Shown: positions 26,511-36,595 of the stretch, one piece after another
How the letters are laid out: each line of letters starts with the position of its first letter
Position numbering within the stretch: the stretch's first letter is position 1
Assembly (NCBI GenBank): GCA_051251855.1
Contig: JBPOGI010000004.1
Location: 160,001 to 224,000 of the forward strand
Origin: Roseibacillus sp.
GTDB taxonomy: Bacteria; Verrucomicrobiota; Verrucomicrobiia; Verrucomicrobiales; Akkermansiaceae
Length of the DNA stretch: 64,000 bases
Reading direction: 5' to 3'
The notes under the pieces: model-generated
What the model was told of the DNA's origin: nothing
The model's database searches: none
Seen by the model: the letters and a program-made list of their open reading frames with translations, nothing else
Position numbers and translations under genes: made by a program

Positions 26511-27890
26511 ATGAAACCAATGAGAAACCTCCTTGCCGTTCTGGCGATTTCCGCTGGCTGCTTGTTCGCAGACCAACACGCGGAAGCCAAGAAAATCGAA
26601 AGTCCCGAATCTCGCGTTGAGCACTTGCTTACCGCCGCCGACCACCTCGAAGCGGCTGGTGCCGTTCGCGAAGCCGAATCTATTCGCAATCACGTGAAAG
26701 CGATGAAAGCTCAAGCTGCAAAGCCTGCCGCGCCCGCCGCCAAATCAGACAAAAAGGGAGCCAAGGCCGGAGCTACTGCTGGTGCAGCCAAGGCCGCAGC
26801 TAAAGCCTCCAAAGCGGTCGCCGTAAAAGGTGCCGACAAGAAGCACGCTTCAAAGCCCGTCGCCGTCTCCCAGCCCATCGAGGTCAAAGTCACTCAAAGC
26901 GACGACCCAAAGGCTCCCAAGAAAGCGGAAGTTAAGCTCGCACAGGCGCCTGCTCCCAAAGCTGCTGAAAAGCCTGCCAAAGAGGTAGCAGTCAAGGCCT
27001 CCAAGCCCGCCGAAAAAGCAAAACCTGCCAAGAAAGAAGAGGCCAAAAAGAGCGCTCCCAAGAAAGCAGAAGCTAAAAAAGAAGCACCCAAGAAGGCAGA
27101 AGCCAAGAAAGACGCTCCCAAGAAGGCAGACGCTCCAAAAAAAGCAGCAGCCAAGAAGGATGCTCCCAAGAAAGCCGAAGCCAAGAAAGCTCCCGCCGCT
27201 CCCGCCGGAAAGTCTGACACTGAAGTAGCGAAAAAAGTGGAGGCTAAAGACGCCAAAGCCCCCTGCTGCCCAACTGAAACTCGTGCTGCGGCACTCAAGG
27301 CCGCTGCTCCCGCAAAGAAGGCTGAAGACCATGGCCACAGCCACGCTGATGGCGCAGCCCACACTCACGGTGCCAAAGCCGAGAAGAAAGCCGACTGCTG
27401 CGGCAAAGGCGGCGAGTGCTGCAAAAACGGAACCTGCCAGAAAGAAGTCAAATGTAGCAAAACTGCTTGCGCGGATGGCGAGTGCACAGAAGGCAAATGC
27501 GAAAAGTCTGCCAAAGCTACTGACTGCTGCGGAAAAGGTGGCGAATGCTGCAAAGACGGAACCTGTAAGGACTCCGCTAAGAAAGATTGCGACAAAGCCG
27601 CTTGTGACAAAGCAGAGTGCAAAGAAGGCAAGTGCTGCGGTGAGTGCGGCGGCGACAAAGCCAAGTGCAAAGAAGCCAAGTGCGAGCCCGGCAAATGCTG
27701 TGGCAAAGACGGAAAGTGCTGTGGCAAATGCGACAAAGCTTCCTGCGACAAGGGCGAGTGCAAAGAAGGCAAATGTGACAAGGGTGAGTGCGAAAAAAGC
27801 GCATGTAGCAAAGGTTCTTGCGACGACGTCATCGAGAGACTCGATGCAATCGAAGAGACCCTCGACGCCATTCTTGAGAAAATGAAGTAG
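26511..27890 (+). CDS. Secreted low-complexity protein: Lys/Ala-rich, His-rich and Cys-rich (metallothionein-like) regions
   Basis: Signal peptide, (K)KDAPKKAEA repeats, HGHSH...HTH, about 33 Cys in the last ~165 aa and a coiled-coil end. Followed by a terminator. Confidence 0.75.
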
Positions 27891-30374: not shown

Positions 30375-31469
30375 ATGAAAAGATTCGTCCTATTCAGCGC
30401 CTTCTCCCTGGCTACCCCTCTCGCCGCCCACGAGCACGAAGATCACAACCACGCTCAACCGAAAACCATCCTCGACCCCGCCCACTTCTTCCAAGAAAAC
30501 CTCACTGGAAAAGTCGAGCAGCAACAAGCCAAGCTCGCCGACGGCAGCGAAGTTCTCTGCTGGGTCATCCCCATCAAATCCGAGCCGGTCGAACACGCCA
30601 TGGGCCCCTGGTGCCCCACTTCCGTCACCGACGACAAGAGCCTCGGAGGCAAGTGGTTTTTTGGAGGCGAGCTCGTCGATGTTGATGGTGACTTCGTCAA
30701 GAACCTCGCTCAACTCTACGAAGACAACGAATGGAATCTCGTCAATGACGACGGCTCTATCAAAGTCACCGACACCGAAGAAGCCTTCCTTCTCGCCGCC
30801 CGTCCCAATGTCGACCCGAAGTATCAAAACCACTGCGTAGAAGCCCCCGCCGATTTGGAAATTGATTCCCAGACGGTCTACACCATCCCCGTCAACCCCG
30901 TCATCAACGACCAGCCCACCCGCCTCACCCGCGGCGGAGTCGCGGTTGCCTTCAACGGCGTCAACTTCGACCCGCCCGCACCCACCAGTGCCATTCTCGC
31001 CGCCCACACCATCGCTCCCCTCGACGACCACGGTGGACACATGAATCCCTTCGAGGGCTATCACTACCACGCCGTCACTGGCAGCACCAAGGAGGTTGCC
31101 AACGAGAAAGGCCACGCCCCTCTCATCGGCTACGTCATCGATGGTTTTCCCCTCCATGCCCAAAAGAATGCCGAGGGAGAAGTCGCCCCCGACCTCGACG
31201 ACTGCGGAGGCCACCAACATGGCGAAGGAAGTTATCACTACCACGCCGGCGCTCCCGGCAGTAACCAAATCATCAAGGCCTTTCGCGGCAGCCCGGGCAC
31301 GGTGGTCATGCCCAACGGGAAGAAGCAGGAACGCGGTCCTCGAGGTGACGGACCTCCTCCCGGCGCCGGCCGCGGCGGACGACCACCACGCGGCGAAGGA
31401 GGTCTTCCCCACCAACGCCCCAACGGTCCTCCTCCTGGAGAGCGCCCTCCTCATCCAGAAGAGAGTTGA
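30375..31469 (+). CDS. YHYH domain protein, secreted
   Basis: Signal peptide, His-rich start, two GGH...YHYH motifs (GYHYH, SYHYH), LIGYVIDGFP and a Gly/Pro/Arg tail. Confidence 0.88.
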   Translation: MKRFVLFSAFSLATPLAAHEHEDHNHAQPKTILDPAHFFQENLTGKVEQQQAKLADGSEVLCWVIPIKSEPVEHAMGPWCPTSVTDDKSLGGKWFFGGELVDVDGDFVKNLAQLYEDNEWNLVNDDGSIKVTDTEEAFLLAARPNVDPKYQNHCVEAPADLEIDSQTVYTIPVNPVINDQPTRLTRGGVAVAFNGVNFDPPAPTSAILAAHTIAPLDDHGGHMNPFEGYHYHAVTGSTKEVANEKGHAPLIGYVIDGFPLHAQKNAEGEVAPDLDDCGGHQHGEGSYHYHAGAPGSNQIIKAFRGSPGTVVMPNGKKQERGPRGDGPPPGAGRGGRPPRGEGGLPHQRPNGPPPGERPPHPEES

Positions 31470-31511
31470 CCGTAATATCTCCCTGCCTTAGGTCGTATCC
31501 TCAAAGTCACT

Positions 31512-31907
31512 TTGACGCGGATTTTCCAGTATCTTTTGCTCGCCCTTGGCCTCATCCACCTTACCATCGGCCCGAGCAATGCCCTCCAAGTTCTCGCTTG
31601 GACGAAAATGCTGGTCGACTACTCGGAAGGTCGCAGCTTTGCGGAAGCGGCCGAAATGACCTTCGACGGCGATCACCCCTGCTCTATGTGCCTCGCGCTA
31701 GAGGAAAGTCGCGAAAAGGAAGAGAGCGACCCCGCGCCCCGGCCGAAGCGGTCAGCCGAGCGCAACGACCTCTTCCCCCAACAAGATATTCGCCCCAAGA
31801 ACCGTCGCGCCATTGTGACCGCGAATAGCCCCCCTTCTCCCGCCCGCCTTTTGGGCCACTGTCAATTTGTTCCCGAGCGGCCCACCCCGCCACCCCGGTT
31901 TGTCTAA
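31512..31907 (+). CDS. Small CxxC / Pro-rich-tail protein (DUF2946/CruR-like leader candidate)
   Basis: N-terminal hydrophobic segment, TFDGDHPCSMC and C-terminal RPTPPPR. Located directly upstream of an outer-membrane protein gene. Confidence 0.65.
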   Translation: MTRIFQYLLLALGLIHLTIGPSNALQVLAWTKMLVDYSEGRSFAEAAEMTFDGDHPCSMCLALEESREKEESDPAPRPKRSAERNDLFPQQDIRPKNRRAIVTANSPPSPARLLGHCQFVPERPTPPPRFV

Positions 31908-31908
31908 A

Positions 31909-31932
31909 GGAGCAAGGACATTCCTGTCCTTG
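31909..31932. repeat. Single GGAG-led REP-like hairpin
   Basis: GGAG-CAAGGACA-TTCC-TGTCCTTG, a perfect 8 bp stem right after the stop codon. Confidence 0.5.
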
Positions 31933-32058
31933 AATACTCAAAGTCTCGGCAAATTCCACGAGCCACCCAAGACCAGGCCCTCCGCCTGCCTCTTGCCCTC
32001 CCGCACCACCGTCGGTTCAGGGCTCCCTTTCACGAACAAATCAAATAGACATAAACTA

Positions 32059-33117
32059 ATGAAAAACACTTTTATCGTATCCGCCCTCGCCACTGCCACC
32101 GCCTTCGCTGGCACCTCCGGGGACTTTCTCGAAACAACGGGCTGCCCTCCTGATCACGATCACTCCGCCCACGAGCACCATCATAACAACGCCCCTATCG
32201 GCGTGATGGGAAGCCACACCCACGCAGCAGGCGAATGGATGGCTAGTTACCGCTACATGTTCATGCGTATGGAGCAAAACTATGATGGCAGCAGCACCGT
32301 GAGCGATAGCTCAGTACTCAGTGACTTCGTGGTAACTCCCCAAAACATGGACATGCAGATGCACATGTTTGGAATCATGTATGCCCCCACCGACAAGATC
32401 ACCATCATGGGAATGCTCAATCTCGTCGAGATGACTATGGACCACCGCACCCGCATGGGTGGCGCCTTCACCACTGAGTCATCGGGCCTCGGCGACAGCT
32501 CCTTCGGCGCACTCTATCAGCTCTTCGCTGACGACAGCCAGTCCGTCCATATCGGCCTCATGGCTCTCCTTCCCACCGCCGACATCGACCAACGCGACGC
32601 CACCCCATTGGGACCGGATAGCCAATTGCCCTACCCCATGCAACTCGGTTCTGGCAGCTGGGGAATCTCCCCCTCCATTACCTGGACCGGACATCAAGAC
32701 GCCTGGTCCTACGGTGCCCAAGCGAGCGGAAAGTTCTACCTCGCCGATAACGAAAATGACTACCGTCTCGGCAACCGCTACGAAGGAACTCTCTGGGGCG
32801 CACGTCAGTGGTCGGACTCGTTCTCCACCTCTCTGCGAGTGAGCGTCTCCCGCTGGGAAGACATCGACGGAGCCGACCCTTCCATCGCTACCACCCCACC
32901 CATGGGGCCGATGGCAGGAGTCCCTCTCGTCCCCACCGCTGATCCTGAGCTTCGCGCCGGCACCCGCATCGACCTTTCGGCCGGAGCCAACTTCCGTATC
33001 CCCAACACCGGAGCCACTCTCGCAATCGAAGCCGGAGTGCCCGTCTACCAAGACCTCGACGGCCCCCAACTCGGCGTCGAATGGTTCGCCACCGCCGGAC
33101 TCCAATTTGCCTTCTAG
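32059..33117 (+). CDS. Outer-membrane beta-barrel 'transporter' (Phenol_MetA_deg-like) with His/Met-rich N-terminus
   Basis: Signal peptide from ATG 32059, HDHSAHEHHH, APIGVMGSHTH, MDMQMHMFGIMYAP, LPYPMQLGSGSW and terminal Phe. Confidence 0.8.
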   Translation: MKNTFIVSALATATAFAGTSGDFLETTGCPPDHDHSAHEHHHNNAPIGVMGSHTHAAGEWMASYRYMFMRMEQNYDGSSTVSDSSVLSDFVVTPQNMDMQMHMFGIMYAPTDKITIMGMLNLVEMTMDHRTRMGGAFTTESSGLGDSSFGALYQLFADDSQSVHIGLMALLPTADIDQRDATPLGPDSQLPYPMQLGSGSWGISPSITWTGHQDAWSYGAQASGKFYLADNENDYRLGNRYEGTLWGARQWSDSFSTSLRVSVSRWEDIDGADPSIATTPPMGPMAGVPLVPTADPELRAGTRIDLSAGANFRIPNTGATLAIEAGVPVYQDLDGPQLGVEWFATAGLQFAF

Positions 33118-33290: not shown

Positions 33291-34178
33291 GTGCATCGCA
33301 TCGCCACCATCGCCTTTGGCACCTTCACCCAGCTTGTACGGATGAAGGTCTTCTACTTTCTCGCCATTTTTGTGGTGCTGGCCATCGCGCTCAACTTCTT
33401 CCGCCTCCCCCACACCATGGGACCCGAGGCCGTCGCTGCTGAGGAGCTACGCCTTTGGAAGTCGGGCACCATCGGGTTGATGAAACTCTTTGCTATCATC
33501 TTCTCACTGGCCGCTACTGCACTGCTCATCCCCCGCGACCTTGAGGACCGTATCCTCTACACCATCCTCTGCAAACCCGTCCCCCGCCTCGACTACCTCA
33601 TCGGCAAACTTCTCGGCGTCCTCATGCTCACCTTCATCGCCCTTCTCGCGATGGACCTCCTGATGACCGCCGTTCTCCATCATCGCACCGGCATTGTGGA
33701 AGCCGAGCGGGTTGCCTTCTTGGAAAGCCGAAACTTCTCCAAAGCCGACATCGCCCTTGAGGTTGCCGAAGTCCGTCGCCATGGCCCCACTCTTTCGCTC
33801 CAATTTGGCATCTTGGGCATCTTTCTCGAAGCCGCCGTCATCGCTGCTGTTGCCCTCCTCATCTCCACCTTTAGTTCCTCTACCCTCTTCACCATCATCA
33901 GCACGATTATGGTCTACTTCATTGGCTTTTTCATGGGCCAAGCGCGTGAATTTTGGATGCAAACCACCAATCTCGGCGACTCCTTTGTTGGCCAAGCCGC
34001 CCTGCAACTCCTTTCCCTCATCTTCCCCGATCTCTCCATCTTTGGGCTCGCCGATGCCGCCATTGCCGGAACCGTCATCCCCGCGCTCACTGCCCTCAAA
34101 GTTTGTGGTCTCGCCCTCGCCTACCTCGTCACCTACACCCTTGTGTCTTGGTTCGTTTTTGCCGACAAAGAGTTTTAA
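33291..34178 (+). CDS. ABC-2 type transporter permease
   Basis: Multiple TM helices, IPRDLEDRILYTILCKPVPR..YLIGK and terminal FADKEF. Confidence 0.85.
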   Translation: MHRIATIAFGTFTQLVRMKVFYFLAIFVVLAIALNFFRLPHTMGPEAVAAEELRLWKSGTIGLMKLFAIIFSLAATALLIPRDLEDRILYTILCKPVPRLDYLIGKLLGVLMLTFIALLAMDLLMTAVLHHRTGIVEAERVAFLESRNFSKADIALEVAEVRRHGPTLSLQFGILGIFLEAAVIAAVALLISTFSSSTLFTIISTIMVYFIGFFMGQAREFWMQTTNLGDSFVGQAALQLLSLIFPDLSIFGLADAAIAGTVIPALTALKVCGLALAYLVTYTLVSWFVFADKEF

Positions 34179-34194: not shown

Positions 34195-34224
34195 TTGGAC
34201 GTGAAACGTTCTCCTGCCTACCCT
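34195..34224 (+). promoter_or_regulatory. Candidate sigma70-type promoter for the retron-like ncRNA
   Basis: TTGGAC (34195-34200), 18 bp spacer, TACCCT (34219-34224). This would start transcription at about 34231, immediately before the inverted repeat. Confidence 0.35.
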
Positions 34225-34232
34225 TCTCTCAA

Positions 34233-34396
34233 GGGAGTCGTTCAACGGCAAGACAGGGAATGGTGAAAACCAGCCCCGCTTCGGGGTTACCCCGAGGACT
34301 CAGCAAAACCGACCCATTCGACGCCGGGCTTAATCACGGTTCCACCGTGAGAGCGCCCGACGCAGGACCAGACAGGTTGCCGGTTGAACGACTCCC
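34233..34396 (+). ncRNA. Putative retron msr-msd non-coding RNA
   Basis: Terminal inverted repeat GGGAGTCGTTCAACGGCAA (34233-34251) / TTGCCGGTTGAACGACTCCC (34377-34396), perfect except for one bulge. G at 34252 follows the 5' arm. Two small 5' hairpins and one longer 3' hairpin lie inside. Directly upstream of an RT gene. Confidence 0.8.
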
Positions 34397-34436
34397 ACTC
34401 CTTCTTCCTTTCCAAGAGCACCCCACCTGCGCCAAC

Positions 34437-35708
34437 GTGCCCGACGTGTCCTCGCAGCGTCAATGGCTTGAGAACTTCGCCACTCTTCTCCTCGAACGCG
34501 AGCGAAGCTTGGCAAGCTGGCAGGATCTCGCCACCGAGACCATCCCCGGCCCCCGACGGCGCTCCTTTCGGCTTCTTCTCGGAGAAGTCTGGGCTGCCAC
34601 TGACAAGACCCCTCTTCTCGAACACTGGCACCTCGCAAATATCCTTCAGGCCAACTCCCGCTTCAAACGATGGTGGGACAAAGGCCCTTGCCCGCTCCCT
34701 CCCGCACTCACCGCTGGCAATCCAACCGCCCAAGTCGACAACTCTGCTTGGGACCTCCCCGAAATCCCCACCCTCTCCTCACTCAACGATCTCATCGAAC
34801 TTCACCCCGACGACATGGGCTGGCTTCTCGGTCCCTCCCATCACTATCACCAAAAGTTGCTTCCCAAACGACGCGGCGGCCGACGACTGTTAGAATCTCC
34901 CAAACCCCTCCTCAAGCAAACGCAGCGAATCCTTCTTCGTCGCTTACTCGACCGCATCCCCCCCCACGAAGCCGCCACCGGATTCCGTCAAGACCATAGC
35001 ATCATCGACTTCGCCAAACCTCATACCGGAAAAGACGTCGTCCTCAAGATGGACCTTGCCCACTTCTTTCCCTCTCTCGGTCGCCCCCGAATCAAGCGCC
35101 TCTTTATGGCCCTCGGCTACCGTGAATCCGTGGCCTTCGCTCTCGCCAGCCTCTCCACCACTCGAAGCTCTTGCCCCCACTTCACCACCCCCGAGCGCAC
35201 TCTCTACAGTCGCTATCATCTCCCCCAAGGCGCGCCCACTTCTCCAGCCCTAGCCAACCTCGCCGCCTTCCGCCTCGACTGTCGTCTTGCAGGCTTGGCA
35301 AAAAAAGCAGGCGCAACCTACACCCGCTACGCCGACGACCTTCTCTTTTCAGGCGATCGAGACTTTACCCGCCAATGCCCACGCTTCCAAATTAAAGTCA
35401 TGGCCATCACTCTCGAAGAAGGCCTCGCCATCAATGCACGTAAAACACGCACAATGCACCGCAGCCAAAAACAATCCGCCGCAGGCCTCATCCTTAACTC
35501 GAAGCTCAACGCCCGCCGTACCGACTACGACCAACTCAAGGCTATTCTCCACAACTGCCGCCAACAAGGCCCCGCCTCCCAAAATCACCAAGCCCACCCC
35601 CACTTCGCAGCCCACTTGAAAGGACGCGTCGCCTGGATTGCCTCTCTCAACCCAGCTTGGGGTGAAAAGCTCCAGTCCACTTATTCCGCCATCGACTGGG
35701 AAAGTTGA
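34437..35708 (+). CDS. Retron-type RNA-directed DNA polymerase (reverse transcriptase) with N-terminal extension
   Basis: PKRRGGRRLLESPKPLLKQTQR, HEAATGF, KMDLAHFFPS, LPQGAPTSPALANL and YTRYADDLLFSG motifs. Likely start is GTG 34437 or 34446; the ORF-track ATG at 34260 lies inside the ncRNA. Confidence 0.92.
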   Translation: MPDVSSQRQWLENFATLLLERERSLASWQDLATETIPGPRRRSFRLLLGEVWAATDKTPLLEHWHLANILQANSRFKRWWDKGPCPLPPALTAGNPTAQVDNSAWDLPEIPTLSSLNDLIELHPDDMGWLLGPSHHYHQKLLPKRRGGRRLLESPKPLLKQTQRILLRRLLDRIPPHEAATGFRQDHSIIDFAKPHTGKDVVLKMDLAHFFPSLGRPRIKRLFMALGYRESVAFALASLSTTRSSCPHFTTPERTLYSRYHLPQGAPTSPALANLAAFRLDCRLAGLAKKAGATYTRYADDLLFSGDRDFTRQCPRFQIKVMAITLEEGLAINARKTRTMHRSQKQSAAGLILNSKLNARRTDYDQLKAILHNCRQQGPASQNHQAHPHFAAHLKGRVAWIASLNPAWGEKLQSTYSAIDWES

Positions 35709-35743: not shown

Positions 35744-36595
35744 GTGAGCGATATCCCCGAACAGGAGAACCCCAACCCCCTCTTTGCGCTCGCAAAGCAA
35801 TACCCCTTCTTCGCACGCACCCCTCGTCGCCGTCGCATTGCCGCCAAGCTCGACCAAATCATCGGCCTTGCCGGTCTCAGCGCCATGCCTGCCAGCATCC
35901 CCATCGGCCATCGGAACCCTTATCAGGCTGGCCACCAATATTTGGACATCGCCATCGAGGGAACTGACGATTTTCTCGCCAAGATCCCCAAAACCGGCCC
36001 CACCCTCGTCGTCGCTAACCATCCCTATGGAGCACTCGACGCCCTCATCGCCTCTGACCTCACCCTCCGCGTCCGCCCCGATGCCCTCATCTTTGGCAAT
36101 GCCGTCCTCGTTCATCCCGTGCATGAAGAATGGCTACTTCCCCTCGAAATCCTCGACGAATCCTCCGCCGCACGCCGTCGCAACCTTGATAGCATGCGCC
36201 GCGCGCTCACCCACCTCCAGGCCGGCGGCTGTGTCCTCATCTTCCCCGCTGGCGAAGTCGAGCGCTGGCGCTGGCCTCGACTCCGCATCGAAGAAGGCGC
36301 TTGGACCGCCCACCTCGCCCGCCTCGCTCTCAAATCCAAAGCGACCATTCTCCCCCTCGCCTACCCGGGCGAAAACCCCCTCTGGTTTCACCTCCCTGGC
36401 GCGCTACATCCTACTCTTCGCCTCCTCGCTCTTCCCCGTGCCTTCCTTTCTCTGCGAGGAAGAACGATTCCCATCCGCACTGGCCAGCCCATCCCGATCG
36501 AAAGCCTCCCCTCCGACCCACACGCCCTCACCGAAGCTGTGCGCCAAGTCGTTCTTCGCCTCGCAGGAAGAGAAGATCAAAGCGACGGGAAATAA
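35744..36595 (+). CDS. Lysophospholipid/PlsC-like acyltransferase (OlsF N-terminal-like)
   Basis: VVANHPYGALD (HxxxxD) and IFPAGEV motifs. Start taken at GTG 35744; an in-frame TTG at 35705 overlaps the RT stop. Confidence 0.85.
   Translation: MSDIPEQENPNPLFALAKQYPFFARTPRRRRIAAKLDQIIGLAGLSAMPASIPIGHRNPYQAGHQYLDIAIEGTDDFLAKIPKTGPTLVVANHPYGALDALIASDLTLRVRPDALIFGNAVLVHPVHEEWLLPLEILDESSAARRRNLDSMRRALTHLQAGGCVLIFPAGEVERWRWPRLRIEEGAWTAHLARLALKSKATILPLAYPGENPLWFHLPGALHPTLRLLALPRAFLSLRGRTIPIRTGQPIPIESLPSDPHALTEAVRQVVLRLAGREDQSDGK

Follow-up and report, generated by a model that had tools for sequence, protein, structure and literature searches.

A probable clade-11 retron with no effector gene in cis in a Roseibacillus genome

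Retrons consist of a small folded RNA and a reverse transcriptase (RT) that copies part of that RNA into DNA. The described retrons closest to the locus reported here belong to RT clade 11 ("outgroup"). In its available text, the work of Mestre et al. (2020; PMC7736814) reports msr-msd-RT cassettes that stand alone, in clades 2 and 11, and poses the use of effectors in trans as a question. The accessible part of a census preprint (PMC10849725) gives 18 clade-11 retrons, 17 actinobacterial and one from Myxococcus, 9 of them with a bacterial RT-DNA vector, and its wording implies an intermediate RT-DNA yield for the clade. A 2026 survey (PMC13712802), in the portion available, counts 71 clade11-A and 39 clade11-B candidates plus 9 residual ones, regards their novelty as low and provides OutgroupA/B RNA models; its supplements as accessed hold 6 Verrucomicrobiota rows for clade 11, and the strings Roseibacillus and Luteolibacter are absent from them. 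The available portions of PMC9252829 and PMC12548924 contain nothing bearing on clade 11, and a literature search for "retron" with "clade 11" returned no functional study among titles and the opening lines of abstracts.

We analyzed a 64,000-nucleotide stretch of DNA from Roseibacillus sp. (assembly GCA_051251855.1, contig JBPOGI010000004.1, positions 160,001 to 224,000; hereafter the window), in which a 164-nt RNA at positions 34233-34396 is followed by an RT of 420 amino acids with a YADD motif and a likely start at 34446. Our data indicate that this locus very probably holds an intact clade-11 retron of two parts, RNA and RT, whose product would be a complex of RT, RNA and msDNA. A preliminary description of the window had proposed a retron architecture here, and its main parts are borne out: the a1/a2 repeat, the G directly after a1, the msr, the msd and a retron-type RT. 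It had also implied that the locus might be a new type peculiar to Verrucomicrobiota, and this did not hold up, since the RT falls in a clade described as stand-alone since 2020 in the available text of PMC7736814 and represented by Verrucomicrobiota rows in the accessible supplement of PMC13712802. On the sequence comparisons below, the locus joins an already known effector-less lineage rather than forming a new type. The known clade-11 set and the window share an RNA and an RT with no associated protein cluster, and the same RNA family is found before a Dietzia RT; the set of Mestre et al. is essentially actinobacterial, whereas the window's branch lies within Verrucomicrobiales, beside branches from Planctomycetota, Acidobacteriota and Burkholderiaceae.

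The RNA, like the RT and the two flanking genes, lies on the plus strand. It is bounded by an inverted repeat whose a1 arm (34233-34251) and a2 arm (34377-34396) form a 19-bp stem with one bulged G at 34382 and enclose 125 nt, at the coordinates given in the preliminary description. The repeat surrounds both msr and msd and lies upstream of the RT, as expected of a retron. Directly 3' of a1, within an AAG, G34252 faces G34376, giving the opposing G pair that retrons carry at the base of the a1/a2 stem. By analogy with established retron biochemistry, G34252 is the predicted branching residue, whose 2'-OH would prime reverse transcription; its context is AAG here, in contrast to the TTAG common in known retrons. 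Retron-Eco1 (Ec86, type II-A3) has the same layout of a1/a2, opposing G, msr and msd. Eco1 also has a linked NDT effector and a VTG motif and lacks a 100-residue N-terminal domain, whereas the window locus is the opposite on all three points.

Within the repeat, the msr contains a variable stem-loop a (34256-34276), whose core at 34261-34272 matches a hairpin of the preliminary description, and a stem-loop b (34279-34297; CTTCGGGG-TTA-CCCCGAGG), the most conserved element of the RNA and, by analogy with characterized retrons, the likely hairpin for RT recognition. The second msr hairpin drawn earlier, CCCCG-CTT-CGGGG at 34274-34286, had to be given up, as 49% of its cells pair in 20 relatives compared with 100% for 34279-34297. 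An A-rich linker (34298-34311) follows, which is the predicted stop zone of reverse transcription under a termination rule given in the accessible text of PMC10849725. The msd hairpin proposed earlier is real by folding and covariation: a stem-loop with an internal loop at 34325-34359 (core 34334-34350) would template the msDNA hairpin, and a conserved GAC-containing end at 34370-34376, which includes the opposing G34376, would template the msDNA 5' end. Folding of 34225-34405 gave -82.2 kcal/mol (z = -5.14), with none of 200 shuffles as stable, and the copied msd strand folds as DNA at z = -2.85. Rfam returned no meaningful match to the RNA (best E 0.059). The heptamer AGACAGG is found at each end of the sequence between the arms (34251-34257 and 34370-34376), so that the 5' end of the msDNA would complement the RNA at the branch point; the heptamer is partly kept in relatives within the genus and not beyond.

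To assess conservation, we aligned the RNA from 20 Verrucomicrobiales loci picked for a clear AAG...GTT frame, covering 40 base pairs in five helices. Both sides had changed at 24 of the 40 pairs, including 11 of 15 in the a1/a2 helix, all seven in stem-loop a (81% of cells paired) and 5 of 6 in the upper msd stem; in stem-loop b, 6 of 8 pairs are invariant and every cell is paired. Overall, 93% of cells are paired, compared with 37-51% for slid partners. None of 500 shuffles reached any of the five measures, a count that is not a probability because the 20 sequences are kin. The AAG...GTT frame is invariant across the 20 loci, and each of its ends is present in 75 of 79 further loci. A covariance model built from the 20 relatives (R1) found the full RNA at all 79 clade loci outside the training set, spanning Verrucomicrobiota, Acidobacteriota, Planctomycetota and Burkholderiaceae, and at none of nine other RT loci. 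R1 also matched upstream of the Dietzia RT (E 1e-6), and gave no convincing RNA before a second actinobacterial RT, from Tsukamurella (L159). The RNA upstream of homologous RTs is therefore both conserved and covarying, as the retron reading of the preliminary description predicted.

Three further observations concern the RNA. One locus carries a second, weaker R1 match (L094:4193-4309, E 3e-4), located roughly 1.3 kb 5' of the main match and possibly a partial duplicate. In another, a stretch of roughly 300 bp that includes a long inverted repeat and looks MITE- or REP-like separates the ncRNA from an intact RT (L021:5363-5690). In the window's genome, 18 nt of the msd hairpin tip also recur without mismatch, away from any long open reading frame (G000:C10:175334-175351); we set this copy aside as compatible with chance, since a match of this kind is present in 53 of 400 random windows.

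The preliminary description had placed a YADD RT about 40 nt 3' of the repeat. The RT itself is confirmed, and its start is corrected: GTG at 34446 is the most likely start (34446-35708, 420 amino acids, with an alternative at 34437), judged by its register with the starts of genus relatives. In four of these relatives, the stop-to-stop RT frame measures 428-442 amino acids. We rejected the 481-residue frame from ATG 34260 that is the protein on record (P0002), as it runs through the ncRNA and is closed in relatives. A weak sigma-70-like motif, TGGACG-N17-TACCCT (34196-34224), with 7 of 12 consensus matches, would put the transcription start near 34231, just 5' of a1. A standard promoter scan returned no site, the 7/12 motif falling under its threshold. 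Across the clade, motifs with at least 8 of 12 matches occur in 38 of 94 upstream segments compared with 2 of 94 control segments taken inside the RT, and their spacing to the branch G is similar. From this, we infer a sigma-70-like promoter ahead of a1. A terminator scan found none on the plus strand after the RT.

The RT contains one Pfam domain, RVT_1. The two PADLOC clade-11 profiles are its best matches, RT_other (PDLC02949) at 411 bits and RT_outgroup (PDLC03740) at 390 bits, and both cover nearly its full length; the next profile, type XIII, scored 303. These two profiles ranked first in all 28 clade RTs given to PADLOC; the other three proteins in that set were two type-XIII-like RTs, for which RT_XIII ranked first, and a second, unrelated RT from the window's genome. 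Among solved structures, retron RTs match best, and that of Ec86 ranks first in the comparison of sequences (E 1.6e-47) as well as in that of folds (TM 0.80 over the target; model pLDDT 93), which agrees with the retron-type class assigned by the PADLOC profiles and with the class that the preliminary description had supposed. In a quick tree of RT cores, the window's RT groups with two actinobacterial RTs (Tsukamurella and Dietzia; SH-aLRT 97), apart from the type-XIII-like pair, and one very long viral branch (L103) also falls inside the clade at an unsure position. We assign the RT to Mestre clade 11, an assignment that rests on the profile scores and the two actinobacterial proxies. A GTDB scan with a single protein query found nothing, and the clade relatives in GTDB were obtained with an alignment query. 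In viral contigs, we found seven distant RTs (24-35% identity), none with this RNA.

YADD is present in 98 of 99 clade RTs. Retron RTs in general have VTG in region Y and NAxxH in region X, with the G and the H as the most conserved letters. VTG is found in none of the 99 clade RTs, which counts against the retron reading: LAG replaces it in 53 and AAG in 32, and the final G is kept in 98. The window has AAG at this position (35478-35486), and the replacement looks like a variant of the whole clade, not damage. For region X, given as HEAATGF, the histidine aligned to that of NATPH in Ec86 is kept (FAKPH, invariant H196) and the NA letters are changed. The RT ends with its thumb at residue 420, with no effector fused to its C-terminus. 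The second RT of the window's genome mentioned above (L161, G000:C6:76435-77082) lies in a 608-aa open frame, is not retron-like by PADLOC and is probably of the group II intron type.

Two other groups of retrons bear comparison. Type XIII (clade 10; Mx162, Mx65, Ne144 and Sa163), the source of the next-best profile, also has a long RT with an N-terminal extension; its SWIM and HEAT/ARM partner genes have no counterpart among the window's flanking proteins. We therefore rejected type XIII identity on the lower profile score, the separate branch and the absence of SWIM or HEAT/ARM neighbors. Type-XIII-like RTs do occur in the same family (L007 in G008 and L014 in G019), where they branch apart and have a different upstream RNA, with a long hairpin in L014, and an unrelated N-terminus; G019 carries both kinds of RT. 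The Retron-Eco5 (Ec107)-like orphan branch of clade 2 likewise has an RNA and an RT with no specific partner in the available text of PMC7736814, but belongs to a different RT clade, and its profile scores 176 bits compared with 411 for the best profile of the window's RT.

Ahead of the RT core, about 100 residues (34446-34745) form five helices in the predicted model (pLDDT 84), and this domain is kept across the clade. It evolves under purifying selection (dN/dS 0.15-0.48), weaker than that on the RT core, and has no invariant residue in 66 sequences. Pfam gave no match for the window's sequence and scattered weak matches among the 66 members. A PDB sequence search gave a best E of 0.033, Foldseek returned nothing at E 0.001, VIA-align reached a best Z of 5.8, within the noise for helical bundles, and the best match in the ESM Atlas scored 0.78; these blank fold searches do not make the domain a new fold. 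Templates built from single sequences, which are weak tests, gave no alignment to the N-terminus of one type XIII RT or of one actinobacterial clade RT. Among the best 150 of 820 matches to a profile of the domain, an RT core follows in 98, the sequence stops no more than 25 aa from the domain in 35, and the other 17 carry unrelated tails, mostly resembling frameshifted fragments. The consensus is rich in Arg and Trp, a composition that would suit RNA or DNA binding better than catalysis. The PADLOC clade profiles span this region, so an extension belongs to the known clade; a literature search returned no description of it.

We show that the retron has no effector gene in cis, in agreement with the preliminary description, which had noted no obvious one. 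It is flanked by an ABC-2-type permease (33291-34178) upstream and an acyltransferase (35744-36595) downstream, both host genes outside the retron, and then by DinB and GNAT genes, all families that the preliminary description had named correctly. PADLOC matched none of seven neighboring proteins in the window. An all-against-all comparison of open reading frames from 79 GTDB loci (flanks of up to 6 kb) and six regions from the genus and family found no family that kept its position; histidine kinases, ABC ATPases and shadow frames over the RNA itself made up the largest clusters. We then compared the first 330 residues of 140 nearest neighbors, drawn from 72 of the 79 loci (seven were left out for short contigs or as close Luteolibacter-type repeats), with PADLOC models. 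Ten matched any model, each by way of what resembles a generic helicase, ATPase, ankyrin or TPR domain, and in none of the 140 was a retron effector the best match. The downstream neighbor lies on the opposite strand in 42 of 70 loci. Frames were called naively with a minimum of 70-90 aa, so a small effector could be missed. The locus thus shows neither the linked nor the C-terminally fused effector of tripartite anti-phage retrons, and it shares with clade 11 the lack of a specifically associated protein.

Two other features of the window lie further upstream. Between fusA and the permease (30375-33117) are a YHYH protein, a small Cys/His-bearing frame and a His-rich outer-membrane protein of the MetA pathway, possibly a metal-uptake module, and absent from this position in G004. 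A protein of 459 aa that looks secreted (26511-27890) combines Ala/Lys/Pro repeats with a long, Cys-rich repeat region at its C-terminus.

Within the genus, five of nine genomes encode the RT, and the RNA is present in exactly those five and in none of the four lacking the RT, one of which is only 79% complete. The permease is present in all nine genomes and has the retron behind it in four (G000, G001, G003 and G004), three of which have the acyltransferase-DinB-GNAT genes behind the retron. One further genome (G007) carries the retron at a different site, and one (G006) shows an empty site, with the permease about 60 bp from the acyltransferase. At the family level, 37 of 401 genomes are positive, with one copy each, and the RT tree mostly follows taxonomy. 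Divergent clade members from other genera of the family (L138 in G256, L006 in G019, L139 and L140) lie on long branches apart from the main Verrucomicrobiales group, a hint of a second acquisition. The RT core has a dN/dS of 0.04-0.21 (17 of 18 pairs computable), and this purifying selection shows that the RT is not decaying. Synonymous divergence (dS) of the RT in the genus, about 1.5-1.6, is similar to the 1.1-1.4 of the adjoining permease, although it approaches saturation. The permease tree has no resolution, so gain and loss within the genus are not polarized. The shared site, similar dS and joint presence and absence fit a long residence with repeated loss. In the best explanation, inheritance of the retron has been largely vertical, at a housekeeping site, and its losses have removed the entire unit.

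These data suggest how the retron would operate. A single transcript from the retron's own weak promoter would carry both the 164-nt RNA and the RT message. Pairing of a1 with a2, a structure supported by covariation, would bring G34252 opposite G34376. As in characterized retrons, the RT would bind stem-loop b and prime from the 2'-OH of G34252, copying from about 34375 back to the A-rich linker, where the termination rule in the accessible text of PMC10849725 would end synthesis. We are confident, by analogy with these retrons, that the product would be a 2'-5' branched msDNA of about 67-78 nt, folded as a bulged hairpin and staying bound to the RT. With no effector in cis, vertical inheritance, purifying selection and loss as a whole unit, the RT-RNA-msDNA complex is most likely the working product.

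What this complex does is a separate matter. It may sense phage or DNA stress, or act as a decoy against either, by engaging an unlinked protein via its msDNA hairpin and the N-terminal domain, a role to which we give slightly less than even credence; a neighborhood unlike a defense island counts against any role in defense. A somewhat unlikely alternative, which would leave the clade-11 identity unchanged, is a domesticated, non-defense retron whose msDNA or RT complex performs an everyday task in the cell or its regulation, such as acting as a decoy for a host protein that binds nucleic acids. Housekeeping neighborhoods, a single copy in each of the 37 positive genomes, an RT tree that largely follows taxonomy, and the suggestion of domestication for clade 11 in the available text of PMC7736814 all fit such a role. 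Set against it are a patchy presence (37 of 401 family and 5 of 9 genus genomes), more typical of accessory defense genes, and the lack of a known phenotype. We consider it improbable that the N-terminal domain is a built-in effector, a toxin held inactive by msDNA, which would make it the N-terminal equivalent of fused types I-C, XI and XII. The domain is indeed kept across the clade under the purifying selection described above, and no clear free-standing version appears among the best 150 of its 820 profile matches; yet it lacks invariant residues in 66 sequences and any match to an enzyme family, and its Arg/Trp-rich consensus would better suit nucleic acid binding.

Other readings deny the locus a host function, and jointly we regard them as distinctly improbable. 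A selfish or mobile element persisting by its own insertion at new sites would account for the clean empty site in G006, the different site in G007 and the varied neighborhoods across phyla. Such an element sits poorly with one copy per genome, with a common site in four species whose synonymous sites are near saturation, with the absence of any linked integrase or transposase family, and with viral contigs whose best relative shares 35% identity; the available text of PMC7736814 adds that autonomous mobility has not been shown for retrons, and we rate this reading as very improbable. Barely credible is a tripartite retron in decay after losing its effector, to which one might ascribe the missing effector in cis, the replaced VTG and the losses within the genus: the frames are intact, YADD is kept in 98 of 99 RTs, dN/dS is far below 1, the RNA shows compensatory changes, and the same effector-less state recurs in five phyla.

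To the described clade, our analysis contributes an RNA model, backed by covariation, for a branch found in five phyla. It also gives evidence that the RT is under purifying selection and occurs together with the RNA, and it documents a fixed site that is empty in one relative, the replacement of VTG throughout the clade, and an N-terminal domain without a known fold. An effector-free retron is also a handy part for making single-stranded DNA in cells. The function of the clade matters because Mestre et al., in the available text of PMC7736814, ask whether orphan retrons use trans effectors or act otherwise. It is possible, though on balance doubtful, that the clade-11 RT-msDNA complex differs from every characterized retron by acting without a separate effector, through its uncharacterized N-terminal domain or in a non-defense cellular role. 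If so, the fixed site, the empty-site relative and the defined RNA model would make the function of an orphan retron directly testable.
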